This document shows, in pieces, positions 43,139 through 60,442 of a DNA stretch of 64,000 nt. Source of the stretch: Bythopirellula sp. (GTDB lineage Bacteria > Planctomycetota > Planctomycetia > Pirellulales > Lacipirellulaceae); assembly GCA_965216565.1 (NCBI GenBank), contig OZ244170.1, positions 3,232,001 to 3,296,000 of the forward strand, read 5' to 3'. Within the stretch, counting starts at the first letter, position 1; each line of letters starts with the position of its first letter. Position numbers and translations under genes: made by a program. The notes beneath the pieces were generated by a model. The model was not told the origin of the DNA and made no database searches. It was given only the letters and a program-made list of their open reading frames with translations.

Positions 43139-43255
43139 CGATCTACCAGTTGGCGATTGAATGACGGGCCGTGTTGCATTAAATTGCAGGGTGCCCGTTG
43201 CTTCTTTGTCACCACTTCGGGCCTATATCGCCTGCTGGGCGCGACTCGGAGCATC

Positions 43256-44200
43256 ATGCCGCCAACCATCAAATTTACCGAACAGCTCGAAGCCTTCTGC
43301 GATCTTGCCAAGCGTCTGGCTAAGCGCGAGCAGACCGACGCCTTGCTGTTTCTGCTTGAAGGGTCCTACAATTGGGATCGACTCCGCGAAACGCTAGGTA
43401 AGTCGAATGTTATTTTGGCTAGTGACAAGGCGGAGCACTTGGAAGGTGCCGAGGAAGCTGGTTTCGACACGGTCGAGCTAAACATTCCCGAGAGCCCCGT
43501 CTATGTGCGGCTCACCCAATCGCTCCTGGAGAGTGTTGCCGACGACCTGCTTGCTCCTGGCGCCGGTGTCGTGGCCCTCTACAGCGGCTTTGACATTGGC
43601 ATTATTGATTCGATTAGTGTCATTCGGCTCGACGAGCACCTCGGACGACTCACCGTCCACGACCTTCGACAACTGGAAACAAAGATACCACTGGAAACAC
43701 TCAAAATGGCCGTCGACTTGGCAGTCGACATTGGTCGCGAGGGACGCGAAGGCAAGCCAGTTGGCGCTCTGTTCGTGGTGGGCGATCACCGCAAAGTCAT
43801 CAAGCAGTGTTACCCGCAAGGCTTCGATGCCGTCAAAGGCTATAAGCCTGAAGAACGAAGGATGCAGGACCCAAAGGTTCGCGAGGCACTCAAAGAAATC
43901 GCTCAGCTCGACGGTGCATTTGTCGTTTCCGCGGACGGAGTCGTGATTGCTTCCTGCCAATATCTCTCGGCACCTGCCGAGGAGCTCACGTTGAGCAAGG
44001 GATTAGGTGCCAGGCATTGGGCCGCGGCTGCCATCAGCAAGGCCACTGCAGCGATCGCCATTGCGGTCAGCGAGTCGAACGGCACAGTGCGCGTTTTTCA
44101 AAACGGCGAAGTCATGCTCCGCATCGAGCCCTTCCGTCGCGCGATGAAGTGGAAAGACTTTCAATACGACCTGCCGTCGGGTCCTCCCACTACGGATTGA
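43256..44200 (+). CDS. Diadenylate cyclase (DAC/DisA_N domain; DacZ-like architecture)
   Basis: 'REGREGKPVGALF', 'LDGAFVV', 'GLGARHWAAA', 'AVSES.GTV'; no TM helix. ATG at 43256 follows GGAG; the ORF track starts at 43157. Confidence 0.85.
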   Translation: MPPTIKFTEQLEAFCDLAKRLAKREQTDALLFLLEGSYNWDRLRETLGKSNVILASDKAEHLEGAEEAGFDTVELNIPESPVYVRLTQSLLESVADDLLAPGAGVVALYSGFDIGIIDSISVIRLDEHLGRLTVHDLRQLETKIPLETLKMAVDLAVDIGREGREGKPVGALFVVGDHRKVIKQCYPQGFDAVKGYKPEERRMQDPKVREALKEIAQLDGAFVVSADGVVIASCQYLSAPAEELTLSKGLGARHWAAAAISKATAAIAIAVSESNGTVRVFQNGEVMLRIEPFRRAMKWKDFQYDLPSGPPTTD

Positions 44201-44232
44201 TGCCTGCGCTTCTCAACCTTCGCCTTGCTATC

Positions 44233-44979
44233 TTAGTGGAGCCTCCTCCTGCGAGAGCAAACCAAAATTCCGTTCAATAGCAAGATCGCAAGTGTCTGGG
44301 GCTCGGGCACACGTGTGATTGAGACACTGTCCAACCACTGAGCGCTTGCCGCGCCTTGGCCACCCTGCCGGTACGCGACAAAATCAAATTGGTGCGACGC
44401 GCTAGTTGCCTGAAATACGTGAGAGCTTGCCTGCCAGGCAGTCGTATGTGGCAGAGGGAAGATACTGCCAATCGCATTGGTGCTTGGGGCGAGCTTTACC
44501 GATGTGCCATCGACAAACAATTCCCAACCTCCGCTAGGTGGCGGCACTAAGGGCGTTTCGCCAAATCCGTTCGTATGATGAAAGTCGATACGATACAGCC
44601 CGCCTGGCGTGAAACCACTAACCGCCTGTCCGACTCCTTCGCGGAGGAAAAAACTTGCACCCCCCGTCGGTATCGGCCCACCCACACCCGTTGCTGGAAT
44701 AAACGCACCCGCTAACTGAAGGTAGTTACCCCAGTTGGTATCCCACAGGGAGACACCCGGGCCGTACAACCAATCGGGACTACCCACATTGATTGTCCAA
44801 CCCGGGGCAGCGGTAACGACCATCTTGTCATCGCCCCCATTCACAAACTGGCCCGGTATTTGTTCCTCGAACGAGTTATTGACAAACGTCTGAGCCTCCG
44901 CCTGACTGTCTAACAGACACACTGCTACCGTCACGATCAGACACTCTACAAGCCGTACAGATTTACGAGAGGCAATCAT
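44233..44979 (-). CDS. PEP-CTERM surface protein 7
   Basis: Signal peptide; beta-sandwich-like 'NNSFE...SPDW...GVGQAVSGFTPG...WLDSVSI'; 'VPEP' + TM + RRRR. GGAGA precedes the ATG at 44979. Confidence 0.85.
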   Translation of the reverse strand: MIASRKSVRLVECLIVTVAVCLLDSQAEAQTFVNNSFEEQIPGQFVNGGDDKMVVTAAPGWTINVGSPDWLYGPGVSLWDTNWGNYLQLAGAFIPATGVGGPIPTGGASFFLREGVGQAVSGFTPGGLYRIDFHHTNGFGETPLVPPPSGGWELFVDGTSVKLAPSTNAIGSIFPLPHTTAWQASSHVFQATSASHQFDFVAYRQGGQGAASAQWLDSVSITRVPEPQTLAILLLNGILVCSRRRRLH

Positions 44980-44998
44980 CGAATTCTCCAAGTTGCGA

Positions 44999-45712
44999 TT
45001 AAGAAGTCTTTACACTCAATACCCATGGCGTTCGCTGACGAAGCACCAGGAGTGCAAGACCCGACATTGCAAGCACGATGCCTGCTGGCTCCGGCACTGC
45101 GATAGGTTGTTGTCGAATCGTGAAGCTTGTGATTCCATCGGGAACGTCGATATTGAACTCGTACAGCGGTGTGGGAAAGCCGAAGTTCGGGAAAATTCCG
45201 CCCGAGGCCTCAATCTCGTCTTCGCCCCAGGCGACAGTGGTGAAGTAACCCGAGCCGGAGAAATCGGGGGGTGAGTCGAAATCGGGTGCGTCAAAATCAA
45301 GCCCGTCGCCCGGTGCAGATGGCACAAAGCTGGTACCGACCCCAAAACCGAGTTCCATACGGTAGGCACTCCAGGGGATGCCCGTCATATTGGAGACGCC
45401 CTCTTCAAAGGTGTACTCTGTCGTGCCACCGCTATCCATAACGATAAACTCTAGATCGACAGGACCAATGGCGTTATAGGCCTTTTGGGTCACTAGAAGT
45501 CTGTTTGGGGAATCTCCCACCACGTTATCGTTATTGGGATCCACCAGCGGACCGATAAACTCTCCGGCAACCGATCCGACGCCCGAGAACCAATTGATCA
45601 TGGTAATTTTGCCCGCGTCTGCCGTGGAGCTGAGTAACATCGTTCCGGCCAACATAGCAAGGAAAGGGAAAAGTCTCGGTGTCGAGCGAAGTTGCTTCAA
45701 TAAGGTATTCAT
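44999..45712 (-). CDS. PEP-CTERM surface protein 6 (resembles choice-of-anchor F)
   Basis: Signal peptide; 'NMTGIPWSAYRMELGFGVGTSFVPSAPGDGLDFD'; 'VPEP' + TM + RQR. Confidence 0.85.
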   Translation of the reverse strand: MNTLLKQLRSTPRLFPFLAMLAGTMLLSSTADAGKITMINWFSGVGSVAGEFIGPLVDPNNDNVVGDSPNRLLVTQKAYNAIGPVDLEFIVMDSGGTTEYTFEEGVSNMTGIPWSAYRMELGFGVGTSFVPSAPGDGLDFDAPDFDSPPDFSGSGYFTTVAWGEDEIEASGGIFPNFGFPTPLYEFNIDVPDGITSFTIRQQPIAVPEPAGIVLAMSGLALLVLRQRTPWVLSVKTS

Positions 45713-45776
45713 TCGTGGTTCCTATTTGTCTGAAAACTGTATATGGCAATTAAGTTCTGTAGGTTTAGAAATACGT

Positions 45777-46430
45777 TTATCGTCTCCGCCAGTGCGCTAG
45801 CACACCGGCAACACCCATTACAAGCAGCCCCGCGGTAGCCGGTTCCGGCACAGGACCGATCTGAGCGTTATCAAACCGCGAAAAGACCGTACCGTTTTGA
45901 AAGCTTCCCGAACCAAAGATCCGCGCGGAATCGAAGCTGGTGCCTGATATCGAAAGGTTGTGATGGGTGATGGTCGAGGTAGTCACAGTGGACGAAGTGG
46001 TTCCCACAACGATTCCTCCGAGCAAAATCTCAAGGTTCAGCGAGTTCCCAATGTGACTACTTCCAAATGTAAACGCCTCGACATTGATAAAGTTTTCCAC
46101 AAGACCGGTTGTCATTCTGAACGTTCCAAGTCCATGAAAGCCTGCGCCAGGACCAGGTACATAACCACCCTGCCCCAACACATTGTTGGGCGAGAAAGCA
46201 GGATCACTGAGCGTAGCTTCTGCTCGTTCGACTACGAACACAGTGGAAAAGCCATTCCAATCGTGGGAATCGTAGAAAGTGATTCCACCGTCTATAAAAC
46301 TCGTGGACTGACTGCCTTCGGTCAGGCCGTCAAATGTGGCTAGCGCACCGACTGCCGGCAAGCTGCCGATGACGCTAGCCACCATTGCCACGAGTACGCC
46401 AAAGGCACTCTTAATGGCCAAGATTCTCAT
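45777..46430 (-). CDS. PEP-CTERM surface protein 5
   Basis: Start is the ATG at 46430 after GAGGA (the ORF-track extension overlaps the next gene); signal peptide; 'VPEP' + TM + WRRR. Confidence 0.85.
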   Translation of the reverse strand: MRILAIKSAFGVLVAMVASVIGSLPAVGALATFDGLTEGSQSTSFIDGGITFYDSHDWNGFSTVFVVERAEATLSDPAFSPNNVLGQGGYVPGPGAGFHGLGTFRMTTGLVENFINVEAFTFGSSHIGNSLNLEILLGGIVVGTTSSTVTTSTITHHNLSISGTSFDSARIFGSGSFQNGTVFSRFDNAQIGPVPEPATAGLLVMGVAGVLAHWRRR

Positions 46431-46483
46431 TGTTGATTCCTCGTTGTTGAATTGGCTTAAAGAGACAGAAGATGGCTTCCGTG

Positions 46484-47185
46484 TTACGCCTGTCGACGAC
46501 GTGGTAGGAATCCGGCAATCAGTGCCGACAAGCCAAGCATCGCGGAGGCTGGTTCTGGTATTGCGATGGCAATGATACTGCCCGAGGAATCGATGATGCC
46601 CGTCGCAGGAGTGCCAGACGCAGTGCCCACGCCAATCGATGAAATCGCACTGGCAGGCAGACCAAGAGTATTGGTGTAATCTTGCAGCACAAACTGCCAC
46701 GATTCACCTGGTTCCCAGATTCCATCGGGAGTCATGCTCTCAGATAGTAGTGGGTGATGGCTTCCGCCTGGATCGGAAATCATGTAGTCGATCCGAAACG
46801 CTTCCTGGACTGGTGGAGAAAGAATATCGTTCGCTTCACCGTCAAAGTTCGTGATGTTGGTCTCTTGGTCGGCTACATACCACACTTCTTGCCAGGCAAT
46901 CCCAGATAGGTTTCTGATATCCACAATTGCATCGGGAGTAGTAGGGTCATCCGTAGCCTGACACACCGGGAGAAAAGTAGAGCCAATGTCGGCCGATGAG
47001 AGCGCCTCGTTGGCTGGGAACTCAGCGAAATGCCCTATTTCGTGAACATCGGTGGGAATCGAAAGCACATCACACTGCGGCGTTTCTATATGCACTACTT
47101 TCGCCGGCAATGCATAGGCCTGAGAAGCTAACAAAGAAATAAGGGAGACGCTCAACATCGATCGATTTAGTTTTAGATAAGTCAT
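46484..47185 (-). CDS. PEP-CTERM surface protein 4 (paralog of 48578..49306)
   Basis: Signal peptide; 'IPEP' + TM + RRR. Confidence 0.88.
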   Translation of the reverse strand: MTYLKLNRSMLSVSLISLLASQAYALPAKVVHIETPQCDVLSIPTDVHEIGHFAEFPANEALSSADIGSTFLPVCQATDDPTTPDAIVDIRNLSGIAWQEVWYVADQETNITNFDGEANDILSPPVQEAFRIDYMISDPGGSHHPLLSESMTPDGIWEPGESWQFVLQDYTNTLGLPASAISSIGVGTASGTPATGIIDSSGSIIAIAIPEPASAMLGLSALIAGFLPRRRQA

Positions 47186-47249
47186 CAGATCTTCTCCTTA
47201 GTAGATGTAATATTGATATTCGTTGTTGATTAATAAATCAGTTCGCACA

Positions 47250-47894
47250 TTAAGCTTCGAATTTTCTGCGGCAGGCAATCGTTACAACACACCCCAATCC
47301 TGCCAGCAGTAGACTTCCCGGTTCGGGGATAGGTAGCGCGTCTCCACGCAGTCGGTTCACATGAGCTCCACTTGGACCTCCGGAATTGTTGACCTGAACC
47401 GTCAGTGTGTTGATACCTGCTAAGAATCCCGTGCTGGTACTAAAAGAGTTGAACGAAGTGAAAGCCGTGCCCCCGCCAGCGTGCGTTGCGAACGATACGC
47501 CATTGAGCAACATGCTCGTAGAGTTATCTCCCGCAAAATCGCCGCTGATTGTCGCCGTAGTGGGATCCAACCCGGTCAGATCAAAAGTCAAGTCATAGGT
47601 GTAGATACCAGCCCCCGTTCCCGAAGTGCCGCCTGCGAGTGGGGTCACCCAACGCGAAGTGGCTGTATTGGGTACCCAACTGGGTGGAATTGGATTACCG
47701 GCAATTGCGGTGGGGACGCCCGTAGGGCCTGTTGTAAGGACCCAATGCGGATCGACCGCGCCATTGGGTAGGGGCACGCCCGAGTTATCGACTCCTGTGT
47801 TAAATAGCCCTGGAATTGGCACGGCCAGTGCCGCAGAGGCCATCGCACCGCAAGCGAGTACTACCAGACAGCTGCGTAAAAATTGAACTCTCAT
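47250..47894 (-). CDS. PEP-CTERM surface protein 3
   Basis: Signal peptide; 'LFNTGVD...DPHW...SRWV...YTYDLTFDLTG...DN...GINTLTVQVNN'; 'IPEP' + TM + RRK. Confidence 0.88.
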   Translation of the reverse strand: MRVQFLRSCLVVLACGAMASAALAVPIPGLFNTGVDNSGVPLPNGAVDPHWVLTTGPTGVPTAIAGNPIPPSWVPNTATSRWVTPLAGGTSGTGAGIYTYDLTFDLTGLDPTTATISGDFAGDNSTSMLLNGVSFATHAGGGTAFTSFNSFSTSTGFLAGINTLTVQVNNSGGPSGAHVNRLRGDALPIPEPGSLLLAGLGCVVTIACRRKFEA

Positions 47895-47957
47895 CAGATC
47901 TATCTCCTCGTAAAAAATCGTGAAAACTAGAAAATTTGACGTGTTATTTATCGCGTG

Positions 47958-48581
47958 TCACAAACTTCGTTGGGACGCACGTGTCATCATTACGCCCAGC
48001 CCGACTAGGCCCAGCAATAGTGTTGTGGGTTCTGGCACCGGAGTTGGGAACTCAATCATCCTGATCAAAGGCGTCCCGGTAGCCCCTGCACTGTTCGGGA
48101 ACACTTCCGCTTGTTTGCGAATCACCAGGACATCGCCGGGCAAGACTGGCTGAGAAAAGTTGTCTAACCACAATTCCTGAGTGCCTAATCCCATCGTGCT
48201 GAATGTGATTGGATTGCCGTTAACCTCCATGCTGGTCACGCTGTTCCAAATAGCAGGTGGCAAACCTGCGGGTGGGGCGAGGATCTCTTCATGCCAATCG
48301 CCCCAGGCTTCCGTTCCGACGTTCACTATGGTTTCAACGATGTCTAGTGGCCCACCGGTGGCTAGGATGATATTCGGATCGAAGATCCCCTTGGACCAAG
48401 GCGGACCGTTGGGATCGAGATCAATCGGCTGCGGATTGTTGGGATCACCTACCAAAACAATCGGCCCAGGCTGTACCGGATGCGAGGTCGCTGGTCCACT
48501 CGCTGTTCCCTGAGCAAAGACCACAGTGTCGGTGAAGCACACTGCCATCCCGAATATGAGTAAACCAGTTAGTATTCTCAT
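47958..48581 (-). CDS. PEP-CTERM surface protein 2
   Basis: Signal peptide; 'VPEP' + TM + basic tail; ATGA overlap with the upstream gene. Confidence 0.88.
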   Translation of the reverse strand: MRILTGLLIFGMAVCFTDTVVFAQGTASGPATSHPVQPGPIVLVGDPNNPQPIDLDPNGPPWSKGIFDPNIILATGGPLDIVETIVNVGTEAWGDWHEEILAPPAGLPPAIWNSVTSMEVNGNPITFSTMGLGTQELWLDNFSQPVLPGDVLVIRKQAEVFPNSAGATGTPLIRMIEFPTPVPEPTTLLLGLVGLGVMMTRASQRSL

Positions 48582-49306
48582 GGCATGCTCCTTTTAGGTT
48601 GATGGATTGCGTTTCGTTGCAAGCCTATCCCGGCAAGACTCACGAAAAGCAACGCGATAGTTGCTGGCTCGGGAACTCTGGCGATAATGCTGCCCGAGGA
48701 AATTGGTTGGAATGGAGGCAGATCGATCGAAGCATTACCAACTCCCATCGAGGCTATTGCATTGGGAGCCAGGCCTAGCAAATTGCCATAGTCCTGCAAA
48801 ACAAATCGCCACTCCTCCCCACTCTGCCAGATCCCGTCTGGCAAGATACTTTCGAAGCGCAAAGGATGGTTGATTCCAGCAGGATCAGTGATGTCGTTGT
48901 CGATGCGAAATGCTTCTTGTCCTGCTGCCACAGAAAACGCAAAGTCGTTGGCAAAACCGTCGAGATTGCTTATGCGTGTCTCTTCGTCAGCGATATACCA
49001 AACAGACTGGAAGTCCTTGCCGCTGGTATTGGTGATCGAAACCAAGAAGTCTGGCAGCGCCGTGCTGTCCGTAGCTAGGCAAGAAGGGCTGGCAGAACCA
49101 AAAGTTCCCGGCAGGAGGCTTTGGTCAGCGGGAAACCCACCAACCGGGTCGCCTATCTCATGCACAGTGCCTGGGATGGATAACGGATCGCATTGGGGTA
49201 AGTCCACATGATTCACCTGCGTTAGCAAAGCATGGGACGGTTGGGCAACCACCATGCAGACAATCAGGCATGAGAGTGCTATTAAGAATTTCAGCTTGGG
49301 TAACAT
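48578..49306 (-). CDS. PEP-CTERM surface protein 1 (paralog of 46484..47185)
   Basis: ATG at 49306 after GAGGA (the ORF track starts at 49348); signal peptide; 'VPEP' + TM + basic tail. Confidence 0.88.
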   Translation of the reverse strand: MLPKLKFLIALSCLIVCMVVAQPSHALLTQVNHVDLPQCDPLSIPGTVHEIGDPVGGFPADQSLLPGTFGSASPSCLATDSTALPDFLVSITNTSGKDFQSVWYIADEETRISNLDGFANDFAFSVAAGQEAFRIDNDITDPAGINHPLRFESILPDGIWQSGEEWRFVLQDYGNLLGLAPNAIASMGVGNASIDLPPFQPISSGSIIARVPEPATIALLFVSLAGIGLQRNAIHQPKRSMP

Positions 49307-49360
49307 GATTCTTTCCTCGAGTGATTTCATGGGCGAAACACGTTTCATGGGTTGTAGTTT

Positions 49361-49585
49361 TTAGCGAAATCGCTTCAGTCGACGACGATGCTTGCCGCCG
49401 CTCGTACGCGAAATCTGTTTGCTATTGCTCTTCGACGCTGGGGTTCGATGCGACGCGGCAATCGCAGATCGGCATCGATGCGACGGCATTGCGACCTTCT
49501 CACTCCGGCTGAATTTTTCGAATTGCTGTAGTTCTTCGACTTCCATGCTGTCGTAATTGCTTAGCGTGACGGTACTCATTGTCAT
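49361..49585 (-). CDS. Small protein with acidic N-terminus and basic C-terminus
   Basis: GAAAGGGGA RBS; fills the gap between the receiver gene and the PEP-CTERM array; ends 'GGKHRRRLKRFR'. Confidence 0.6.
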   Translation of the reverse strand: MTMSTVTLSNYDSMEVEELQQFEKFSRSEKVAMPSHRCRSAIAASHRTPASKSNSKQISRTSGGKHRRRLKRFR

Positions 49586-49607
49586 TCCCCTTTCTTAAGA
49601 AATGGCT

Positions 49608-50057
49608 CTAACGGGTTTGTCCCGTCGGAACTTGTGACGAAGTTTGTGAGTCGAGCAAACTAGAACTGTGCACCTCGACGGCTGATCCTGGTTGGAGCCA
49701 TCCTTGTACCCACTCGAGCTGGATTGGCTTGCAGACGTATTGCACAACTCGCAGCTCAAGTGCCTGACGTTCGCGTTTACGGTCGTAGTTGCCATCAACC
49801 ACGATTGCTCGCAGCTTGTTGTTCAGCGATTGCAACATCTCGAGCAGTTCGAAGCCGTCCATGTCTGGCAAACTCAGATTAATTAGCCACACCGCATCGC
49901 CAAAACTAGGTGCCAACCGCAAGGCACTGCTTCCCGTGGAGGTCAAAGTGAGCCGGATCGACTGCTTCCAAGCCGGCTCCACTAAACAGCGATAGTCGTC
50001 CAGCTGAGGATCGACAATCACTAAGCGCGAACCATTTGTAGTTGGTGAATTGCCCAT
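49608..50057 (-). CDS. Stand-alone receiver-domain protein (pseudo-receiver)
   Basis: CheY-like pattern 'LVIVD...WLINLSLPDMDGFELL...YVCKP'; Asn at the phosphoacceptor position; AGGAG RBS. Confidence 0.8.
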   Translation of the reverse strand: MGNSPTTNGSRLVIVDPQLDDYRCLVEPAWKQSIRLTLTSTGSSALRLAPSFGDAVWLINLSLPDMDGFELLEMLQSLNNKLRAIVVDGNYDRKRERQALELRVVQYVCKPIQLEWVQGWLQPGSAVEVHSSSLLDSQTSSQVPTGQTR

Positions 50058-50153
50058 GCAATGCTCCTGTTGTCGTAATCGTTGCCCATCTTCTGTTTCG
50101 AATGCTTGTGCTCACCACTTTTCAGTGGCCACACTTGCTTGGCACAGGACAAT

Positions 50154-50170
50154 CGCACTGCGCGTGCCAA
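50154..50170 (-). promoter_or_regulatory. sigma54 (-24/-12) promoter
   Basis: Minus strand reads TTGGCACGCGCAGTGCG, i.e. TGGCACG-N4-GTGC with exact GG-N10-GC spacing, about 100 bp upstream of the receiver ATG. Confidence 0.7.
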
Positions 50171-50271
50171 ATCGAACGACGACAGCTCGCGATGAGCTGT
50201 AAGTTGTTTCTTCTCCAGGAGAAAGAATCTCTATGGCGTTAACGCAAAGAGAAATGCGTCTTGAAGCGGGC

Positions 50272-50330
50272 TGGTCGCTAGCGACCATTTAGGAGCGGAT
50301 CGCTTCTACCGCTGGGAGCAAATAGCACCT
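50272..50330. promoter_or_regulatory. Candidate upstream activator sequences
   Basis: Perfect 16-bp palindrome tggtcgctagcgacca (50272-50287), followed by imperfect dyads aggagcggatcgcttct and ggagcaaatagcacc, about 100-160 bp upstream of the -24 element. Confidence 0.5.
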
Positions 50331-50472
50331 GCGGTCAGTTTAGAAGTGCACACATTTAAAGACTTTGAGAAAATTGCCTTCGAGGGGAAGCGCGCAGAGC
50401 GTGGGCGGGAGGAGAGAGAGTCACCCAACTTAGAAAGCCTCTAGGGAACCGAGACGACCATGTGCCGGTTCA

Positions 50473-51516
50473 TCAGCTCGATTCCGCCGCCGTATCGAGC
50501 CCCAATTTCTTAATTCGGCGCCGGAGAACACTGCGGTCCATATCCAGCAGCCGCGCCGCAGCCGCCTGATTCGAATTGGTCTCCCGCAATGTAGCTGCAA
50601 TGAATTCGCGTTCGAAGTCTTGATGGGTGGGCCAGCTACCATCTGCCTGCGGCGCAAATCGCCATTGTCCTGCGGCGGGCTCTTCCCTTGGCAACGACTC
50701 CGCCGACGGTCTTGGCTGTCCCAGCTCGTCAAAGACGATGTCTCCTGGTTCGATCAGCTCGCTCCGCGATAGCATTGCTGCCCGCTCTAGTACGTTTTGC
50801 AGTTCGCGTACGTTGCCTGGCCAATGATGCGCCAAGAGCTTTTCTAGTGCTTCTGCCGCCAGGGGTTTGAAGGGCAATCCATGCTTCACGCATTGGCGAG
50901 CTAAGAGATAATCGGCAAGAAGTTCGACGTCTTCGGGTCGCTCGCAGAGAGACTTGGTTTTCAATGAGACTACTGCCAGTCGATAGTAGAGGTCTTCACG
51001 AAAACGGCCGGCAGCCACTTCTGCCAATAGGTCGCGATTGGTAGCAGCCAGCACGCGGACGTCGACTTCTTGCTCTTCATGACTGCCAACCGGTACGACA
51101 GTTCCCTCTTGTAATACGCGCAGAAGCTTCGCCTGCATGGCTGGCTCTAGCTCGCCCACCTCGTCCAGAAAAACCGTTCCGCCGTCTGCGGCCCGAAAGC
51201 AACCTAGCGCTTCGTAATTAGAATCGGTGAAAGCGCCTTTCAGATGGCCAAACATGTGGCTTTCGAAAAGTGTCCCCGAAATAGCCGCGCAGTTAACCGG
51301 CACGAAGGGTTCGTCGGAACGGGGACTTTGGGTGTGAATGGCGCGTGCAATAAGTTCTTTGCCCGTGCCGCTGGGGCCGGTGATCAACACGCTGGTACAG
51401 AATGGGGCGATACTAGACAGATCCTGCTGAATCTGTTTTACCCAGTTGGACTTACCCACAAGCGGGCGCGCCGCAGAATCACTGCGCACCGCAGTCCTGC
51501 TATCTAAGCTACACAC
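50473..51516 (-). CDS. sigma54-dependent transcriptional activator (AAA+ and Fis-type HTH, no N-terminal regulatory domain)
   Basis: 'ITGPSGTGKELIARAIH', 'FESHMFGHLKGAFTDS', 'FLDEVGE', 'FREDLYYRL', 'WPGNVRELQN', 'NQAAAARLLDMDRSVL'. Confidence 0.93.
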   Translation of the reverse strand: MCSLDSRTAVRSDSAARPLVGKSNWVKQIQQDLSSIAPFCTSVLITGPSGTGKELIARAIHTQSPRSDEPFVPVNCAAISGTLFESHMFGHLKGAFTDSNYEALGCFRAADGGTVFLDEVGELEPAMQAKLLRVLQEGTVVPVGSHEEQEVDVRVLAATNRDLLAEVAAGRFREDLYYRLAVVSLKTKSLCERPEDVELLADYLLARQCVKHGLPFKPLAAEALEKLLAHHWPGNVRELQNVLERAAMLSRSELIEPGDIVFDELGQPRPSAESLPREEPAAGQWRFAPQADGSWPTHQDFEREFIAATLRETNSNQAAAARLLDMDRSVLRRRIKKLGLDTAAESS

Positions 51517-51997
51517 GAGTTCACTAGCCCTCCCCCAAGGAATCGTGAAACACCCCGGTATTAAGGAACCGGTCCAACTCGTCTGCGCTAAATGGAGGAA
51601 GCGAACGCAATATCCCCGAGACAGGTCGCTCTCCCCACTAGAGTCGGCAAACTTTGGGCCGCATCCCTAGTTGACCTTAGTTGCGCCGATCCTAAAGGAT
51701 CGAGCAGGAAATTGCAACTTTTTACTGGTATTTCACTATAACTTGGCCCCTCACTCGGGTAGGAGCGACTTCCCAGTCTGCCTGAACTTCCTCGGGTGGC
51801 CCACCGCGATTCCGACATTCCGCCGGGGCTGCCTTATTCCAGAGTGAAATAGCTGAGAAAATTTTGAGGGATTCTCTACCATAAGTTGAGTTCCAAGGGC
51901 CCGATCGCCACAATCGGTGTTTATGATGGAATATTCTCATTGATTGATTAACCAGTGGCTTTTCGACCTGATAGATCCCATCCCTTTCTTTTCGACT

Positions 51998-53575
51998 ATG
52001 AGCACTCCCACCATCGCAGCAGACCATCGTAGTTTTAAATTCAACGATTTCCTGCAGAGCTTTTTCCGGCATAAACGGAAAGCCGCTATTCTAGCGCTGA
52101 CAATTCTCATTGGAGCGGCATTGGTACTAGTATTCGCGCCCAGGACCTATCGGTCCGAAGCGATGCTCTACCTGCAAATTGGTCGGGAGTCGGTCCGGCT
52201 TGACCCCACCGCTACCACCGGCGAACGTATTTCTGTACAGCAGATCGATCGCTCCCAAGAAGTCACCTCTGTGATCGATGTACTTTATAGCCGCGGGATT
52301 CTTGAAAAGCTCGTCGACGAACTTGGCCCCGAGGTGATCCTTGCCAAAGAGTTACCCGAGGGTGAGGAAGAATCGAGCATTGCTCAATCGACTATCGATA
52401 CGATCGCGAATTACACGATTATTCCATTGATTCAAACAATCAAGGGCATCGATCCGATCTCACAGCGAGAAGAGGCAATCGTCAGACTCGGAAGAAATCT
52501 TAGTGTGTACGCCGAACGCGATTCGAGTCTAATTACGGTGCGGTACGACACTAAGTACCCCAAGCTCGCGCAGCGCGTGATGCACAATCTTATTGAGATC
52601 TATCGATCGGAGCATTTGAGGCTGCATCGCACCAGCGGCTCGAAGGAGTTTTTTGCTAATCAACATGCCAATTTGGAAAGTCAACTGAACGATGCTGTCG
52701 ACAAGCTGGCTGCTGCGAAGAATCGATTGAATCTTGTATCGATCGATTTACGACGAACTACGCTGGAAGAACGCCTGGGAAAAATCGAGTTGGCAAGCTA
52801 CGCCAACCTACAAGAACTGGCCTCGCTGCAGGCAGAATCTGCAGACTTGAGCGAACAGGTGGCGGCCATTCCCGAGCGGATTGTTTCTGAAGATATTACC
52901 GTTCCCAACACGGGTACCGATGCCCTGCGGGAGAAACTCTACGATTTGCAAGTGCTCCAGATGGACCAAGAAGCCAAATATAGCAGTGACCACCCTGCCC
53001 TTCAGAATACAAGAAAGCAAGTGAAGCAGGCCCAAGATATTCTGTCAGCCGAAACTCGCGCTCGCCAAGAAACTACGAACGACATGAATCCCAACCATCA
53101 AGCGCTTGCCCTCTCCCTGGCGACTGTCGAAAGCAAATTGGCTGCTGCCGAAGCTGGCAAGAGTGCGTTGGAATCGCAGAGAAACACCATTTTGGAAGAC
53201 TTAAAGACTCTCAATAACCATGAGCTAGAGATCGATGAACTAAGCCGCCAAGTGCAAATCTCGCGAGAGAAATATTTTCGCTATGCCGAAAACCTAGAGC
53301 AGGCGCGCATAGATGAAGAACTGAACAAGCAACGAATTTCAAATGTCATCGTAGCCCAACCAGCCACATTGATTGAGAAACCGGTGAGCCCCAACAAATT
53401 GGTGGTCATCGCCCTGGCTGGAGTCCTTACGATCGCATCGGTGATTGCCCTTGTTTGTTTCTGCGAACTTACTGGCAACCGGATTCGTACGCAAGAACAG
53501 CTCAACAGAGCCGTGGGTCTTCCCGTGCTGGGAGTCGTGCCCGAAGATCAAGAACTGGCCAGCGCTCTCGCCTAG
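51998..53575 (+). CDS. Polysaccharide co-polymerase (GumC/Wzc N-terminal part)
   Basis: Two TM helices flanking a coiled-coil periplasmic region; 'YSSDHP', 'PVSPNK', 'GLPVLGVVP'. The ORF track starts at 51944. Confidence 0.88.
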   Translation: MSTPTIAADHRSFKFNDFLQSFFRHKRKAAILALTILIGAALVLVFAPRTYRSEAMLYLQIGRESVRLDPTATTGERISVQQIDRSQEVTSVIDVLYSRGILEKLVDELGPEVILAKELPEGEEESSIAQSTIDTIANYTIIPLIQTIKGIDPISQREEAIVRLGRNLSVYAERDSSLITVRYDTKYPKLAQRVMHNLIEIYRSEHLRLHRTSGSKEFFANQHANLESQLNDAVDKLAAAKNRLNLVSIDLRRTTLEERLGKIELASYANLQELASLQAESADLSEQVAAIPERIVSEDITVPNTGTDALREKLYDLQVLQMDQEAKYSSDHPALQNTRKQVKQAQDILSAETRARQETTNDMNPNHQALALSLATVESKLAAAEAGKSALESQRNTILEDLKTLNNHELEIDELSRQVQISREKYFRYAENLEQARIDEELNKQRISNVIVAQPATLIEKPVSPNKLVVIALAGVLTIASVIALVCFCELTGNRIRTQEQLNRAVGLPVLGVVPEDQELASALA

Positions 53576-53624
53576 TATTACTTTCCACGAAATCGCAAAA
53601 TCAACTTCACAACGAAGCCCCAAC

Positions 53625-54347
53625 ATGAGCACCGAGATATCCCCCAACGCTGCCTCGCACTCAGGCGTTTCAACGGAAACAAGCGAGTACACGGATCGCG
53701 ATCGAGCGTCCCAGGTCTTTCGAAATCTTACCGGTGCAGCTGGAGAAGCGATCGATTCAATCCTCTGGCGACTAAAAGCCAAACTAGGGTCAGATACTGC
53801 AATCATCTTCGGTGTCACGGGCGGTGAGAAACACTCCGGCACATCCACGATCGCCCACGCGTTGGCCGCCCGTGCAGGTCAGCAAACGGGTACTCGAGTG
53901 CTACTGATCGATGCCACCGGGAATCAAGCTCAACAGAGCGGTGGCGAACAAGTCGCGGGGTTAGGCGAGATCATGGCGGGCGAGATTGCACCATTGGAAT
54001 GCCAAGTCACTACTCCCTACGAAAACGTCGACCTGATTGGCATGGATGCTTGCAATGCACTTGCAACGGGCGTGGAAGAACGGTTTATTGCAGAAATGCT
54101 TCATGAGTATGCCTCGCATTACGACATGATTGTCGTTGATCTGCCCGTGGCTGGTGAGCTCAAGAAAGTCCTTCCCTTAGCCAAACATCTTCCGGGGGTC
54201 CTCCTAGTTGTGCGAAGCGAAAATGCAAAGCACTCGCAGACGCAACAAGCGGTCGATCAGCTGACACAAGATGGCGTGAGTATCTTTGGCACCGTCTTGA
54301 ATGGATATCGCAATTCGGTACCTCAATGGCTGAGAAAGTGGTTTTAG
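53625..54347 (+). CDS. CpsD/CapB-like BY-kinase domain protein, degenerate
   Basis: 'FGVTGGEKHSGTSTIA', 'VLLIDA', 'YDMIVVDLP', 'VLLVVR', 'GTVLN'; no C-terminal Tyr cluster. The ORF track starts at 53445. Confidence 0.8.
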   Translation: MSTEISPNAASHSGVSTETSEYTDRDRASQVFRNLTGAAGEAIDSILWRLKAKLGSDTAIIFGVTGGEKHSGTSTIAHALAARAGQQTGTRVLLIDATGNQAQQSGGEQVAGLGEIMAGEIAPLECQVTTPYENVDLIGMDACNALATGVEERFIAEMLHEYASHYDMIVVDLPVAGELKKVLPLAKHLPGVLLVVRSENAKHSQTQQAVDQLTQDGVSIFGTVLNGYRNSVPQWLRKWF

Positions 54348-54401
54348 CCTGTCCCTACCGATTGGCTGACGGGTGACCATTTCTTGAATTTCTGAAATTG
54401 G

Positions 54402-54428
54402 TTAGACAAACGGGCCCAGATCGCGCAT
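54402..54428 (+). promoter_or_regulatory. Candidate ECF promoter, copy 1
   Basis: TTAGACAAA-cgggcccagatc-GCGCAT, ending 11 nt before the ECF sigma ATG. Confidence 0.65.
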
Positions 54429-54439
54429 CGTAAGGGGTA

Positions 54440-55006
54440 ATGACTAATTCTACCCCTTTTTCCGAGCAAGTCCAAGCCTGTGCAAACCGCTTGGCCGAGA
54501 GTGGAGTCCCTGCGCTCGCTGGCCTATTCGACCTCACCAGCCAACGTCTCGTTCGGTACGCCACGACTCTCACCCGCAATCAGCATGACGCGGAAGATGC
54601 TGTGCAAGCGGCCCTCGTTCAAATCGCCAAACATAGCAGTTCGTTTTCGAAAGCCAGACAGCCTTGGCCTTACTTATTGCGTGTCGTGCGAAACGAAGCC
54701 TTGCAAATCATGCGTCGCAAGCGACGATGGGCGCTGGCTGGCGGCCTTGCCGACTTGTTAACTCGATGCTTGGTAGACGAAGTCGAGCAAGAAGAGTCGT
54801 ACCGAGCTGTTTGGTCCGCGTTAAGGTCACTTCCCTCGGCGCAAGCGGAAGTGGTTGTGCTGAAAATCTGGGAAGAGATGACCTTCGCAGAGATCGGTCA
54901 AATCCTTGGAATCAGCGCCTTCACTGCGGGCAGCCGTTACCGCTACGGTATGGAGAAACTTGCTCACAAGCTAAAGCCGACCGGTGTGGAGGTCACTCAT
55001 GGGTGA
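54440..55006 (+). CDS. ECF-type RNA polymerase sigma factor
   Basis: 'HDAEDAVQAAL', 'YLLRVVRNEA', 'LPSAQAEVVVLKIWEEMTFAEIG...SRYRYG'. Confidence 0.93.
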   Translation: MTNSTPFSEQVQACANRLAESGVPALAGLFDLTSQRLVRYATTLTRNQHDAEDAVQAALVQIAKHSSSFSKARQPWPYLLRVVRNEALQIMRRKRRWALAGGLADLLTRCLVDEVEQEESYRAVWSALRSLPSAQAEVVVLKIWEEMTFAEIGQILGISAFTAGSRYRYGMEKLAHKLKPTGVEVTHG

Positions 55007-55400
55007 ATTTCATGTCGATAATGAAAGCTGCAATTTTGGCTTCGACGGTTTGGAGTCGATTGTGCAGTCGGCAGGTTCATACGTCCATCCCACGGATGAT
55101 CTTCGACCCAAAACCCTGGAAGCGGCACGAAATGCCAAAAAGCAGCGGGTAAGGAACTTTCGGGTTGGCTCCATTCTCTTGGGGCTCTCGTTTATGGCAC
55201 TGACCGGATTACCTGGCAGCCTTCTCAATTGGGGCTCGTCAGAAGCTGCCTCCACGCTGCAGGCGGTACGTCAGTATGACCTTCACAAGCAGGCATCGAT
55301 GCGTATTCTCCATGCGGGCTTGGATCCTAGTTGGGCGTTTTACGAGGCTTTCATCCAACTGCGGACCGATCAAGCCAAACTCTTTGAAGAATCGATGTAG
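54999..55400 (+). CDS. Putative single-TM anti-sigma factor
   Basis: Overlaps the sigma stop codon; GGAGG RBS; short cytoplasmic domain, basic stretch and one TM helix. Confidence 0.65.
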   Translation: MGEFHVDNESCNFGFDGLESIVQSAGSYVHPTDDLRPKTLEAARNAKKQRVRNFRVGSILLGLSFMALTGLPGSLLNWGSSEAASTLQAVRQYDLHKQASMRILHAGLDPSWAFYEAFIQLRTDQAKLFEESM

Positions 55401-55414
55401 CCAAGTCAACTTTC

Positions 55415-55441
55415 TTAGACAAATGGCTCACTCTGGCGCAT
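55415..55441 (+). promoter_or_regulatory. Candidate ECF promoter, copy 2
   Basis: TTAGACAAA-tggctcactctg-GCGCAT; same boxes and same 12-nt spacer as copy 1; upstream of the PilC/pilin operon. Confidence 0.65.
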
Positions 55442-55591
55442 TATCTTCCTAACGGAGGTGTATCTACGCATCGATGAACCAGAGAACCGGCAGCCTAACG
55501 ACTACTATGTTGCCTAGCCGCGGCTTAGTTTTGCAAGATCACAATGAACGTCACTGCCGTTTCAAACCGAGTCCAGGGTCAATGATAAGGC

Positions 55592-56596
55592 ATGAGTGAA
55601 GTCTCTTTAGACAAAACGCTAGCTTTTAACAAACACCTCCGAGCGCTCTCGGCCGCAGGGGTACGCTTCGACCTAGGCGATCAGTCTCGGACAATTCTAG
55701 AAATACTTGAGCATGCCGACAAGAATTTGGCTCTACGGGCCAGCCTCAACCAGTCGATGACCGAGGCATTAAGTGAAGATCAAGAACTGCCGACAATCTA
55801 CCGCAATGCTGTCCAGTCGGGACTTTCTTCAGGCAATCCCACTTCCGTTCTCGATTCGCTCAGCCGCATTCCTTGGACTGGTCAACAGATTCGACGTGTT
55901 TTGGGATACAGCTTTGTTCAGCCGTTAATTTTGTTTGCCATTGCGTTTGGTGGATTCATCGTTCTGTGCGCGACCTTCGTCCCGACAGCGAGCGAAATCT
56001 ACAACCAACTCCAACGCGAGCCGCACTGGAGCATTCGATTTCTACAACTCGCTCGCAATTCGATGCCAATCTGGGGCCTGCTGGTACCTCTGCTAGTTCT
56101 GCTGTTAATCTGGCGGTGGTGCCGGGTGGCTGCGATTCCTGCCATCGGGCTGCCGAGTAGAGTTCGGTTCTCCCGTGCCATAGGTTACGCGAACTTTTCC
56201 GATCAGTTGCGAGCAATGGTACAGAGTAAAGTGTCATTGCCCGAATCCCTTCGACTGGCTGGCAGCATGGGAGGTAGGCAGGAGCTAGCAATTGCCGCTG
56301 AAGCTTTGGCGGATGCGGCCGAGCGCGACATCACATTGGCTTCTGACGATCAACGGTTGAATGGGCTTCCCCCGTTATTGCGGTGGACGCTCACCACGGA
56401 ACTAGGGAGTCAATCGTTACCCGACATCCTCCACTTTGCTGCGAAGACTTATCGAAAAAAAGCCCAGAGCCAAGTCACATTCTGGCAAACTGCCTGGCCG
56501 GTGTTTTTTGGGGCATTGATCGGAGGGGCGATCGTCCTATTCTTCGGCTTGTGCCTGTTCGGACCTTACGTGAATTTGCTGAAAGATCTTTCCTAA
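55592..56596 (+). CDS. Type II secretion F / PilC family protein, copy 1 (divergent)
   Basis: Two T2SSF-like domains and three TM helices ('FSDQLRAMVQSKVSLPESLRLA', 'LFGPYVNLL'). Confidence 0.75.
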   Translation: MSEVSLDKTLAFNKHLRALSAAGVRFDLGDQSRTILEILEHADKNLALRASLNQSMTEALSEDQELPTIYRNAVQSGLSSGNPTSVLDSLSRIPWTGQQIRRVLGYSFVQPLILFAIAFGGFIVLCATFVPTASEIYNQLQREPHWSIRFLQLARNSMPIWGLLVPLLVLLLIWRWCRVAAIPAIGLPSRVRFSRAIGYANFSDQLRAMVQSKVSLPESLRLAGSMGGRQELAIAAEALADAAERDITLASDDQRLNGLPPLLRWTLTTELGSQSLPDILHFAAKTYRKKAQSQVTFWQTAWPVFFGALIGGAIVLFFGLCLFGPYVNLLKDLS

Positions 56597-56608
56597 CAGA
56601 GTCCCAGA

Positions 56609-57829
56609 ATGCCCAAATTCTTGTTTACTGCACAAACTTCGAATCAGCAGCATCACAGTGGGGAACTGTCTGCTGACAGCCTAGCTGAAGCGCAAGCAGA
56701 ACTTGAAGCAAAGGGTTTCATCGTCCACTCGCTCACGCAGCTTTCCAACGAAACCGAATCTACGATAGCTCCGGTGCTGTCTGCTACACCAGCTGGATCC
56801 AATTTCGAGAGCGTCAGACAATTCGATCAACAGCTTTTGGAGTCTCGCATTGCAGACTTCCTGAACGAACGCGATCTCATAATCCCTGCCTTACAGGCTC
56901 TTGTCGAAGAGCTGCCTGCTGGGTCGAAAAGACGACGACTCGCGCAGCTTGTCGCTGAACTGCAAGCAGGCGTCACACCAGAACAGCTCGCCGCTGCAGA
57001 GGATGCCGCAGAAACCTGGCTTCCACTTCTGAGTAGTGCTTCACCATTTGGATCCAACCGATTCTTGTGCGATCTGTTTGAAGAAACTGCCCGCACCAAT
57101 GCGATTCGGTCCGAATACTGGCGAATTTCAGCCTACCCGACGGCAATCTTTTTCATGGCAATCGCTGTGGTCGTATTCTTGAGTATCGTGGTTGTCCCTA
57201 GCTTTCAAGAGATCTATAACGACTTTGAATTGGATCTCCCACTACTAACCTTGGGAGTACTGCAAGTCTCGGAGGCGATTCTTTTTCATCCGGTATTGAT
57301 GCTTTGCCTTGTAGTTGCGCTCTTTGGATTGGTCTATGCCGGCCTCAAGCTTATCCGAAGGTTGCAGGCTTCTAACTGGACGCTGGGAGCACTTTCCAAC
57401 GGTAATTCTTCTCAAGTTGCAACCATGGCGGAGTTCGTGCGGCGGGTTGCAGAAGGATTGAAAACACATCTGCCACTGGCAACTTCTTTGCGGCTGGCAG
57501 GACAAAGTTGCGGAGTGCCCTGGTTACGTCGCGAATCAGAAATGTTGGCGAGTTCTTTAGAAGAAGACGGAGAGTTAGGGACTCCTCAACGATCAGGCTT
57601 TCCTTTAACAGTGGTTTATGCCCTGCGTGCAAGTCACGATGGAGGCCCCAACATCCGTCTATTGGAAGAAATGGCCACAAACTACACAGAACGGCTGGAG
57701 ACCCGTTTCAGTTGGGCCAGCGGTTTTCTGCCCATCTTAGGAATTGTGATAGTAGGCATGGCTGTATTTCTAGTGGTGATGGCACTCTATCTGCCATTAG
57801 TTCAACTGATCGACGGCCTAACGGGTTAA
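56609..57829 (+). CDS. Type II secretion F / PilC family protein, copy 2
   Basis: 'MPKFLFTA...GELSADS', 'AYP...VVPSFQEIYNDFELDLPLLT', 'ALYLPL'. Confidence 0.88.
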   Translation: MPKFLFTAQTSNQQHHSGELSADSLAEAQAELEAKGFIVHSLTQLSNETESTIAPVLSATPAGSNFESVRQFDQQLLESRIADFLNERDLIIPALQALVEELPAGSKRRRLAQLVAELQAGVTPEQLAAAEDAAETWLPLLSSASPFGSNRFLCDLFEETARTNAIRSEYWRISAYPTAIFFMAIAVVVFLSIVVVPSFQEIYNDFELDLPLLTLGVLQVSEAILFHPVLMLCLVVALFGLVYAGLKLIRRLQASNWTLGALSNGNSSQVATMAEFVRRVAEGLKTHLPLATSLRLAGQSCGVPWLRRESEMLASSLEEDGELGTPQRSGFPLTVVYALRASHDGGPNIRLLEEMATNYTERLETRFSWASGFLPILGIVIVGMAVFLVVMALYLPLVQLIDGLTG

Positions 57830-57845
57830 CTGTCTGGAGACTAAC

Positions 57846-58949
57846 TTGAGCACAGATCACGCCGCCACGCATTTTGCACCTCCTAAGGTGGCTACCATTA
57901 GCCCTTGGCTTATGTCGCCCTGGTGGCCCGCTGACTCCCTTGGCACGAAGCAGAGATCGCTATTACGGATCTTATCTGTCGCGACAAGCGAAAACATCGT
58001 GCCTGCGCCTCTCGTCTTTTGCCTGGCTCATGAACATCGAGGCAGTTACAGTCGCAAACTAAAGCGGCTCGCGCAACGGCTAGCCTCTGGGATGACACTT
58101 CCCGATGCAATCGAGAATACTCCCGGCGTGCTGCCTGACGATCACATGCTTGCTGTTCGCTTTGGAACCCAATCCGGAATTCTCTCTCAAGTCTTCGAGT
58201 CGATACTTTCACGAGATCAATCCACGGGGCACTCACTGAGAGCTCGTCTAATCGAGCTTGCCCTCTACAGCAAGTTCATGCTTGCCACTATGTTCTTTAT
58301 TCTGTTGTTCATGATGGTCAAAATAGTCCCCAGCTTTCAGGCTATATTCGATGATTTCGAGCTCGATTTGCCTCGGATTACGCTTTGGCTTATTGAGTCC
58401 AGCGAGTTCTTCATCAACTACTGGTACCTGTTCGCTCTGGTCCTAATCGGAATTTTCGTTCTGGGAGGCTCGCACGCCTCCCGTAGCTTTTTCAGTAGAA
58501 CTCTGTTTTCTCGCGTCATTCCTCCGGTGGCGTCGTTACGCTCTGCCGAAATGATGGATCTGCTGTCCGTAAGTGTTGCCGCCGGTCGGCCAGTCGCCGG
58601 GTCGCTGTCGACCATGGCCCGCTATCACACCTATCCCGTGATACGCCGTAAGTTGTTGTTCGTCTTTAATGAAGTAGAGCAAGGCGCCGATCCTTGGGAG
58701 AGCATGGTTGCTACTCGGCTGATCAATGCCAAGGAGTCTGCTGCCATCGCCAGTGCCACTTCTCAAGAATCACGTGCGTGGACGATGAACCGATTGGCCC
58801 AGTTGCGCCGCGAACGATTCACCACCAAGGTCGATGCTTTTGGAAACCTACTTCAAACCGCGGCGACACTTTGCTTAGGTGCCGTCGTGCTATTTGTGGG
58901 CGTTGCTCTGCTCTTACCCTTATTCGATCTTGTCAACAACCTAAATTGA
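57846..58949 (+). CDS. Type II secretion F / PilC family protein, copy 3
   Basis: 'LASGMTLPDAI', 'IVPSFQAIFDDFELDLPRIT', 'VEQG', 'ALLLPLF'. Confidence 0.85.
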   Translation: MSTDHAATHFAPPKVATISPWLMSPWWPADSLGTKQRSLLRILSVATSENIVPAPLVFCLAHEHRGSYSRKLKRLAQRLASGMTLPDAIENTPGVLPDDHMLAVRFGTQSGILSQVFESILSRDQSTGHSLRARLIELALYSKFMLATMFFILLFMMVKIVPSFQAIFDDFELDLPRITLWLIESSEFFINYWYLFALVLIGIFVLGGSHASRSFFSRTLFSRVIPPVASLRSAEMMDLLSVSVAAGRPVAGSLSTMARYHTYPVIRRKLLFVFNEVEQGADPWESMVATRLINAKESAAIASATSQESRAWTMNRLAQLRRERFTTKVDAFGNLLQTAATLCLGAVVLFVGVALLLPLFDLVNNLN

Positions 58950-58958
58950 CAATCAGCG

Positions 58959-59492
58959 ATGGAAGTAATGATCTTCTCAACACAATCATACCTTTTACCG
59001 AAACAATTCGCGCGGCCTAGAGAGCGATCAGGCTTTGCCATGACCGACCTGGTTGTGGGAGCGACATTGCTGGTGGCTCTCATTTCTTTTGTCGCTCCTC
59101 TTGCGGTTCGCACCGGACGACTTTGGCAGGATACCGATCGTACACGTCTTGCACTGGACGAACTATCCAACCAACTAGAGAGGATCACTCGTCTTGAAGA
59201 GGCGGAATTACCTGCAACTCTTGAATCATTGACGCCCTCCCCCCACATAGCGAAGCGGCTCCCCAATGCCACTATTGAAGGCGAAACCATCACGGACACA
59301 GATGGCACACGAGTAGTACTTCGTTTGCAGTGGGATCGAGTCGGTCTCGCAAAGCCCATCACGCTCGTCGGGTGGGTCGATAGCTTGCCCGTTGAGGTTG
59401 ATTTAGAGAAGGATGCGCCTGACGGGAACTCGGCGTTAGAAAATTCCACAGAAGAGAAAGCTAGGGAGAGTGCTGAGGAGACCACACCATGA
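58959..59492 (+). CDS. Minor pilin/pseudopilin-like protein (GspI/PilV-like position)
   Basis: 'RSG|FAMTDLVVGATLL' class III signal with Asp in place of Glu5; start codon uncertain. Confidence 0.65.
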   Translation: MEVMIFSTQSYLLPKQFARPRERSGFAMTDLVVGATLLVALISFVAPLAVRTGRLWQDTDRTRLALDELSNQLERITRLEEAELPATLESLTPSPHIAKRLPNATIEGETITDTDGTRVVLRLQWDRVGLAKPITLVGWVDSLPVEVDLEKDAPDGNSALENSTEEKARESAEETTP

Positions 59493-60426: not shown

Positions 60427-60442
60427 TCTTAAGGAGTTTACG

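Follow-up and report, generated by a model that had tools for sequence, protein, structure and literature searches.

How might a run of seven PEP-CTERM genes in a planctomycete be switched by a sigma54 activator that is headless, that is, lacks an N-terminal regulatory domain, and what does an aspartate-less receiver do at the head of the same run? This question is raised by a stretch of 64,000 nucleotides from Bythopirellula sp. (assembly GCA_965216565.1, contig OZ244170.1, positions 3,232,001 to 3,296,000 of the forward strand; hereafter the window, with positions counted from its first letter), in which ten co-oriented open reading frames (ORFs) on the minus strand lie back to back with two on the plus strand, as a first-pass annotation made from the letters had described. 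That annotation had also placed the PEP-CTERM array under sigma54 control by the adjacent headless activator, a proposal now upheld by a -24/-12 site, by enhancer-like sites matched to the activator's recognition helix, by synteny and by co-occurrence. The promoter and the enhancer-like sites, which it had not contained, are the strongest evidence. We argue that the locus is likely to encode a kinase-free sigma54 switch for the cell surface, belonging to one group of planctomycetes; the best explanation as a whole, to which we give barely better than even chances, is that the headless activator would switch one operon, while the receiver would bind the activator and hold it down. The elements on which this reading turns are the following:

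50473..51516, minus strand: sigma54 enhancer-binding protein without an N-terminal regulatory domain, with an AAA+ domain (GAFTDS loop) and a Fis helix-turn-helix (HTH), recognition helix DRSVLRRR (from Pfam, motifs and a tree)
50272..50305, minus strand: tandem enhancer-like sites, a perfect palindrome at 117 bp upstream of the promoter (50272-50287) and another site at 50292-50305
50154..50170, minus strand: predicted sigma54 -24/-12 promoter (17.1 bits with a matrix built without the window)
49608..50057, minus strand: stand-alone aspartate-less receiver (PF00072), the first gene after the promoter

The window's genome (5.21 Mb, 94% complete, with one rpoN) encodes 16 sigma54 activators, four of them headless, and 210 PEP-CTERM candidates by a pattern search, a few of which are probably false. 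A headless activator or a PEP-CTERM gene alone is thus unremarkable here, and it is therefore their combination that needed testing. With the receiver as search bait we examined 94 loci (93 fetched plus the window), which represent 83 genomes and 11 families within the window's order, likely Pirellulales to judge from named homologues; the fetched loci came from three receiver searches (20, 40 and 33), and several genomes of the family f14 that lay above the score gap were left out. Counts over these loci thus rest on receiver-picked loci from kin genomes and, because such genomes are not independent, describe patterns and not statistics. Across the 94 loci the neighbourhood is conserved in its regulatory core: the predicted activator, receiver and promoter form a conserved module, and the divergent pair of plus-strand genes lies outside it.

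A sigma54 -24/-12 site scoring at least 19.5 within 450 bp of the receiver gene was found on the coding strand in 74 of the 94 loci and on the reverse strand in 4, in a scan scored against the sigma54 consensus. Upstream of the promoter, the sequence of the palindrome tracks the recognition helix of the activator. Type A sites, TGTCCG-N4-CGGACA, accompany an S/TRQ helix in 28 of 29 loci; type B sites, TGGTCG-N4-CGACCA, accompany the window's DRSVLRRR (DRS) helix in 7 of 7, at -117 to -126; a third pattern (type D) goes with the DRK helix in 8 of 9 loci and a fourth (type E) with the xRA/T helix in 7 of 7. None of 36 other loci has type A sites, and shuffled sequence yields no more than 0.5 matches. 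More independent checks come from two sources. At two loci (L080 and L088) an SRQ helix goes together with type A sites, though the AAA+ domains of these activators fall among those of the DRK type. And in f14, where the activator is unlinked yet present, with the window's recognition helix, in 5 of 5 genomes tested, the receiver promoters bear the window's site types: the second type in 8 of 9 (by a pattern refined after the f14 loci were inspected), the palindrome in 3 of 9 and type A in 0 of 9.

Two copies of the perfect palindrome exist in the 5.21 Mb of the genome, and only the copy in the window has a strong sigma54 site (17.1 bits) at a distance of 90-200 bp. At a threshold of 12 bits, sigma54 sites are not enriched at PEP-CTERM genes, being found at 2 of the 165 that have an upstream gap versus 58 of 1842 other genes. 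Given a single palindrome and promoter pair and no sigma54 enrichment at the other PEP-CTERM genes, the activator looks dedicated to one operon, and we consider it highly probable, on these sites, that it binds the palindromes, opens the promoter at 50154-50170 and has no other target in the genome. Gaps inside the predicted operon measure at most 64 bp, and no internal terminators were called in the gaps between its genes; we infer that the receiver, the small protein and the PEP-CTERM genes are co-transcribed. Rfam has no match in 44000-54500.

The activator had been described as one without a receiver, and it consists indeed of the AAA+ domain (PF00158, 218 bits) and the Fis HTH only. It is truly headless, because its reading frame closes 50 codons upstream; a frameshifted receiver remnant ahead of it was considered and rejected, none being seen upstream. 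Among module activators in general, the open frame before Walker A spans 41-119 residues in 59 of 61, and the two longer ones look non-coding by eye. The Walker A/B, sensor and Arg-finger motifs are intact in the window's activator, and its loop reads GAFTDS. In a tree of 56 rows, built by a quick method from which 2 of the genome's 15 other activators are absent (overlooked by the pattern), the module activators form one side of a branch with a Shimodaira-Hasegawa-like approximate likelihood-ratio (SH-aLRT) support of 99 versus 13 other activators of the genome; in a profile search, the 15 score 183-315 bits versus 406 for the window's activator. The protein is neither a PspF orthologue (TIGR02974, 245.5 versus a cut-off of 443.55) nor PrsR (TIGR02915, 273.9 versus 502.6, with a match that begins at profile position 133). 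Three further headless sigma54 activators of the genome belong to other subfamilies (G000:C1:4685080-4686054, 1318197-1319222 and 3860195-3861358), and the first of them has two PEP-CTERM genes within 6 kb downstream.

The receiver matches PF00072 with 39 bits (cut-off 30.2) and has Asn at the phospho-Asp position. It had been called free and non-phosphorylatable, and this agrees with the phospho-site column, in which none of the 94 receivers keeps the aspartate (N 67, S 13, A 8, G 2, C 2, H 2, D 0); as judged from the alignment, the loss spans the whole receiver family. The second acid is mostly lost as well, the Lys is retained in 79 of 94, and D8, Y14, Y83 (83 of 94), E88 (92 of 94), Y99 and K102 are conserved. 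No member of the family turned up in a draw of 300 other genomes from the phylum, with 15 candidates scored per genome. Scans that used one protein each as query, in which generic receivers at 22-40% identity were among the matches listed, were not used.

Receiver and activator travel together. The activator lies at 63 of the 94 loci, directly upstream of the receiver in 52 and otherwise behind the array or divergent, and it is found in 59 of the 67 loci outside f14 that have at least 2.5 kb on both sides. Among 120 genomes of the family, 46 hold both proteins, 2 and 1 a single one and 71 neither, and in the three single-partner genomes the missing partner sits at the locus, below threshold; the corresponding figures for 251 genomes of the order are 49, 1 and 4, and 197. 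Distances between receivers correlate with those between AAA+ domains (r 0.82, 53 pairs), and paralogous modules sort pairwise. Covariation between the two proteins over the same number of pairs is confounded by kinship (effective number of sequences, Neff, 31) and uninformative. The receiver is the only cytoplasmic part present in every lineage of the module, it retains surface residues of its own (Y83 and E88), and in most loci it comes first after the promoter. In f14 (L035, L082, L109, L111 and L112; e.g. L035:9606-10900) a variant operon encodes a conserved hydrophobic peptide of 35-42 residues and a receiver with a 22-residue insertion, with the activator gene unlinked, and 7 f14 loci have a second receiver of the aspartate-less type, whose C-terminal hydrophobic helix is a possible membrane anchor. 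Such an operon could tie the switch to the membrane.

Behind the receiver, the predicted operon continues as follows:

49361..49585, minus strand: small protein with an acidic N-terminus, an Arg-rich C-terminus and the motif F-E-[KR]-I-x7-M-P-V; likely start 49579 (72 residues)
48578..49306, minus strand: PEP-CTERM protein 1, 52% identical to its paralogue, protein 4; family of 13 in 10 loci
47958..48581, minus strand: PEP-CTERM protein 2; family of 11 in 10 loci
47250..47894, minus strand: PEP-CTERM protein 3; family of 14 in 14 loci
46484..47185, minus strand: PEP-CTERM protein 4, with two invariant Cys in a domain predicted to be all-beta; model with a predicted local distance difference test score (pLDDT) of 83.7
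45777..46430, minus strand: PEP-CTERM protein 5, start corrected to the ATG at 46430 (217 residues); one relative among module proteins
44999..45712, minus strand: PEP-CTERM protein 6, predicted all-beta (model pLDDT 78.7), with a partial match to choice-of-anchor F; family of 8 in 8 loci
44233..44979, minus strand: PEP-CTERM protein 7, a singleton; sorting signal by eye and pattern

The seven PEP-CTERM ORFs had been given as tightly spaced and 200-250 residues long; corrected lengths are 207-248 residues, with gaps of at most 64 bp. By eye and pattern all seven have a signal peptide, the PEP motif, a transmembrane helix and a basic tail, and 4 of 7 pass a curated cut-off (PF07589 or TIGR02595); protein 6 reaches 53-54 bits with NF033657 (cut-off 50). 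This is the genome's longest PEP-CTERM run among its 210 candidates, the next having five genes. The 185 PEP-CTERM proteins of the module cluster among themselves and none clusters with 234 other candidates of the window's genome, and five of the window's seven belong to families spanning 8-14 loci, such that the module's PEP-CTERM proteins look like a surface toolkit dedicated to it. Of the 94 loci, 65 have one or more PEP-CTERM genes, with passenger sets of 0-8 genes per locus; DUF7901, the commonest module family (26 loci of 5 families), is absent from the window. Foldseek gave no match at E<=0.001 for the models of proteins 4 and 6, and all Atlas scores for protein 4 were below 0.85; a likeness to a carbohydrate-binding domain was considered and is too weak to claim (best VIA, Z 4.3, root-mean-square deviation 3.7, 92 aligned). 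In the family f4 (L073, L074, L078 and L086), the place of PEP-CTERM behind the receiver is taken by a secreted-looking protein of 290-330 residues, which has no Pfam match, is rich in Arg and Ser over one stretch and carries a conserved C-terminal motif. One exosortase was located in the genome, away from the locus, at G000:C1:4778479 (TIGR02602, 134.6 versus a cut-off of 105.55); about 200 PEP-CTERM genes thus face one detected exosortase. Behind it in its locus (L332, G000:C1:4778368-4782122) come a sigma54-like site, scoring 17.3 bits, and a Wzc-like gene of full length.

The small protein, annotated earlier as a basic ORF of 74 residues, has proved to be a real gene family, with 152 clusters at E<=0.001 and a ratio of nonsynonymous to synonymous polymorphism (pN/pS) of 0.11-0.45 in 23 of 23 close pairs, which amounts to purifying selection. 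It is found in 38 of the 94 loci, which makes it accessory to the module, and as a single copy in the window's genome. Nucleic-acid binding or modulation of the receiver would be guesses at its role; Atlas yielded no usable match for it. At one locus (L290, G599:C15) receiver and small protein share an open frame without a stop, a possible fusion seen in this single case, and at L022:10050-10300, in a genome (G020) with two modules, the small protein precedes the receiver instead of trailing it.

Upstream of the activator, on the other strand, lie two further genes:

51998..53575, plus strand: Wzz/GumC-like chain-length determinant, neighbour outside the module (family models)
53625..54347, plus strand: CpsD/EpsG-like protein without the Walker A lysine and the tyrosine cluster, neighbour outside the module (family models, motifs)

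The GumC and CapB-like pair that had been noted is thus present and adjacent, but its CapB/CpsD-like member lacks both the Walker A lysine and the tyrosine cluster. Wzz and CpsD-like genes adjoin each other in 20 of 20 loci fetched, Wzc/BY-kinase models staying below cut-off; in the CpsD-like family, none of 15 readable Walker A loops has Gly-Lys (5 were not parsed), and all 20 proteins have at most 2 Tyr in their last 30 residues. The CpsD-like member of such pairs (window 53625-54347; L313-L331) is a candidate pseudokinase co-polymerase.

We propose that the headless activator would switch on one operon, encoding the receiver, the small basic protein and the seven PEP-CTERM proteins predicted to be sorted to the surface, and that the receiver, as product of the operon's first gene, would bind the activator and hold it down until this brake is lifted by a signal other than phosphorylation. 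As knowledge of the family suggests, the genome's single exosortase would process the PEP-CTERM proteins, which would then be displayed as small, predicted all-beta surface proteins and probably serve attachment or aggregation; the small basic protein would be an accessory and the Wzz/CpsD pair a chance neighbour. We consider it somewhat more probable than not that the receiver is a feedback anti-activator working in trans on the AAA+ domain, by analogy with PspA on PspF or HrpV on HrpS. We read it as a brake because headless activators such as PspF and HrpR/S are listed as controlled in trans by a binding protein (PMC7175178, Table 1), because the receiver is the cytoplasmic part kept everywhere and because receiver-only proteins bind FleQ. 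Several points weigh against this proposal. The support for a brake is indirect and fits a merely co-expressed or a co-activating receiver as well; a receiver that is a mere output of the operon would predict linkage, co-occurrence and co-inheritance just as well; and the sequence does not reveal the sign of control. The genomes are kin and the loci were chosen by their receiver. Enhancer counts within the helix groups are partly circular, because the patterns were derived from those same groups, with 18 loci unclassified and 11 unscored. No PEP-CTERM gene lies behind the receiver in 29 of the 94 loci (some on short contigs, some with other secreted proteins), and surface output is therefore not universal. 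Finally, among 63 module activators the GAFTDS loop is found in the window's alone, 46 having GAFTGA.

What else could the receiver be doing? It may be an output of the operon that acts elsewhere at the time the surface proteins are produced, on motility, a kinase or a second-messenger enzyme, with the activator set by its own expression or by an unlinked factor. All synteny and co-occurrence results would fit, pseudo-receivers bind many kinds of partner (PMC12632262), and the activator gene, whose own upstream region lacks a sigma54 site (best 6.1 bits), could be dosed transcriptionally; nevertheless, the pairing of receiver and activator persists while the passengers and the small protein vary from locus to locus, the receiver remains first behind the promoter in most loci, and a headless activator usually needs a brake in trans (PMC7175178, Table 1), which makes this account rather unlikely in our view. 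Less probable still is a receiver that serves as co-activator, a detached regulatory domain aiding assembly of the AAA+ ring, so that positive feedback would produce an on/off surface state in part of the population. The same linkage evidence is compatible with it, and a split ancestral protein would fit the observation that the top five canonical hits of the receiver profile in the genome are receivers of NtrC-type activators (43-49 bits, the next 36), and that NtrC heads the PDB list by a small margin. However, a split-NtrC origin was set aside, the tree not grouping the receiver family with NtrC-type receivers and leaving its placement unresolved, and no fused receiver-AAA+ form was seen among 33 longer hits, which is weak evidence. 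We regard as very improbable that the activator, the array and the divergent Wzz/CpsD pair form one coat system linked to exopolysaccharide (EPS) and equivalent to PrsK/PrsR. The pair adjoins the module here and in G020 (L021), and among NCBIfam models the XrtA-system chain-length one fits it best, though below cut-off; yet it is next to the module in only these 2 of 94 loci (2 of the 76 with at least 6 kb upstream) and is distributed independently, since the 26 other genomes of the genus include 11 that have the receiver but no CpsD-like match, 5 with a CpsD-like orthologue but neither receiver nor activator, and 5 with both, adjacent, among the loci fetched, only in G020. No sigma54 site faces the pair (best score towards wzz 1.2 bits), and the exosortase lies elsewhere beside a full-length Wzc-like gene. 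The split Wzc that had been counted as a part of the system must thus be given up, and with it the EPS link at this locus. The least probable account, for which we see hardly any room, is that the module in this genome is a decaying copy whose GAFTDS loop, unique among the 63, no longer drives sigma54: the other catalytic motifs are intact, the end branch (0.15) is unremarkable, enhancer and promoter agree with those of the group, two other activators of the genome have GAFTDA, and the equivalent Gly-to-Asp change in NorR (G266D) leaves it active (PMC2941729).

The proposed receiver-braked switch can be set beside known systems, although no description of the module was found in the literature searched, which covers few subscription papers. 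As in the PspA operon, the activator adjoins its target operon, and the first gene of that operon is a candidate regulator in trans. The module also shares an activator without a regulatory domain with the group 4 systems PspF/PspA and HrpRS/HrpV (PMC7175178, Table 1; PMC3105312), whereas its candidate regulator is a receiver fold and not PspA or HrpV, and its output would be surface-sorted proteins. With PrsK/PrsR(/PrsT) of Proteobacteria it has in common a sigma54 promoter and an upstream activator site before PEP-CTERM genes, and an exosortase in the genome (PMC1569441); in that system pepA is RpoN-dependent (PMC9850573). It differs in having no kinase, no receiver on the activator and other enhancer sequences. 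The absence of a kinase, which had been claimed, holds for PrsK (TIGR02916, best 98.6 versus a cut-off of 300, kinase core only, in a genome 94% complete), but the claim that the locus follows the same logic does not, in that only this one operon carries the sites: PrsK/PrsR governs a genome-wide regulon of mostly single genes, while the module is predicted to be a switch of one multi-gene operon. Haft 2006 (PMC1569441) reported shared motifs from Proteobacteria only, and in the accessible portion of PMC12316311, which cites a Pirellula sigma54 study, PEP-CTERM is not mentioned. In Xanthomonas, two receiver-only proteins, VemR and DrdR, have the activator FleQ as binding partner, and its ATPase is inhibited by DrdR (PMC8828458, PMC13535131); the likeness lies in a receiver-only protein with a sigma54 activator as partner, a partnership that in the module would have to be assumed. 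VemR, however, is phosphorylated by a kinase, whereas the module's receiver lacks the phospho-Asp and is encoded inside its predicted target operon. Aspartate-less receivers surveyed in PMC12632262 likewise have a PF00072-detected fold from which the phospho-Asp is lost, and their mode of action is called a mystery there; the module's receiver is a stand-alone family tied to one activator subfamily, a pairing not named in the available text of that survey.

The module is thus conserved and apparently undescribed, and joins a group 4 activator with sigma54 control of PEP-CTERM genes. It would extend such control to planctomycetes by a different architecture and set 7 of the genome's about 200 PEP-CTERM genes apart as a separately switched group. 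With one activator, one receiver and one promoter with predicted enhancer sites, it offers a small reconstitutable test case for pseudo-receiver action, and its four helix/enhancer pairs, which predict DNA specificity directly, could serve as orthogonal sigma54 parts. Experiments are feasible because named cultured species encode homologues of the small protein (Bythopirellula goksoeyrii, B. polymerisocia) and of the receiver (Roseimaritima ulvae). More tentatively, and with doubts that outweigh our confidence, one can envisage a new class of sigma54 control in which a free aspartate-less receiver would be the detachable regulatory domain of a headless activator, made from the target operon itself; such a portable and self-contained feedback switch could exist in paralogous copies kept separate by the helix/enhancer code, each with dedicated, novel beta-fold proteins from which a distinct planctomycete surface layer would be built, for instance at settlement.

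Beyond the module, a gene for a DacZ-like diadenylate cyclase (window 43157-44200) converges on the end of the array, and one is also found just past the array in L021. On the other side, 54440-61378 of the window encodes an extracytoplasmic function (ECF) sigma factor, a small candidate anti-sigma factor, three tandem GspF/PilC paralogues, three pilin-like proteins and a DUF1559 protein.

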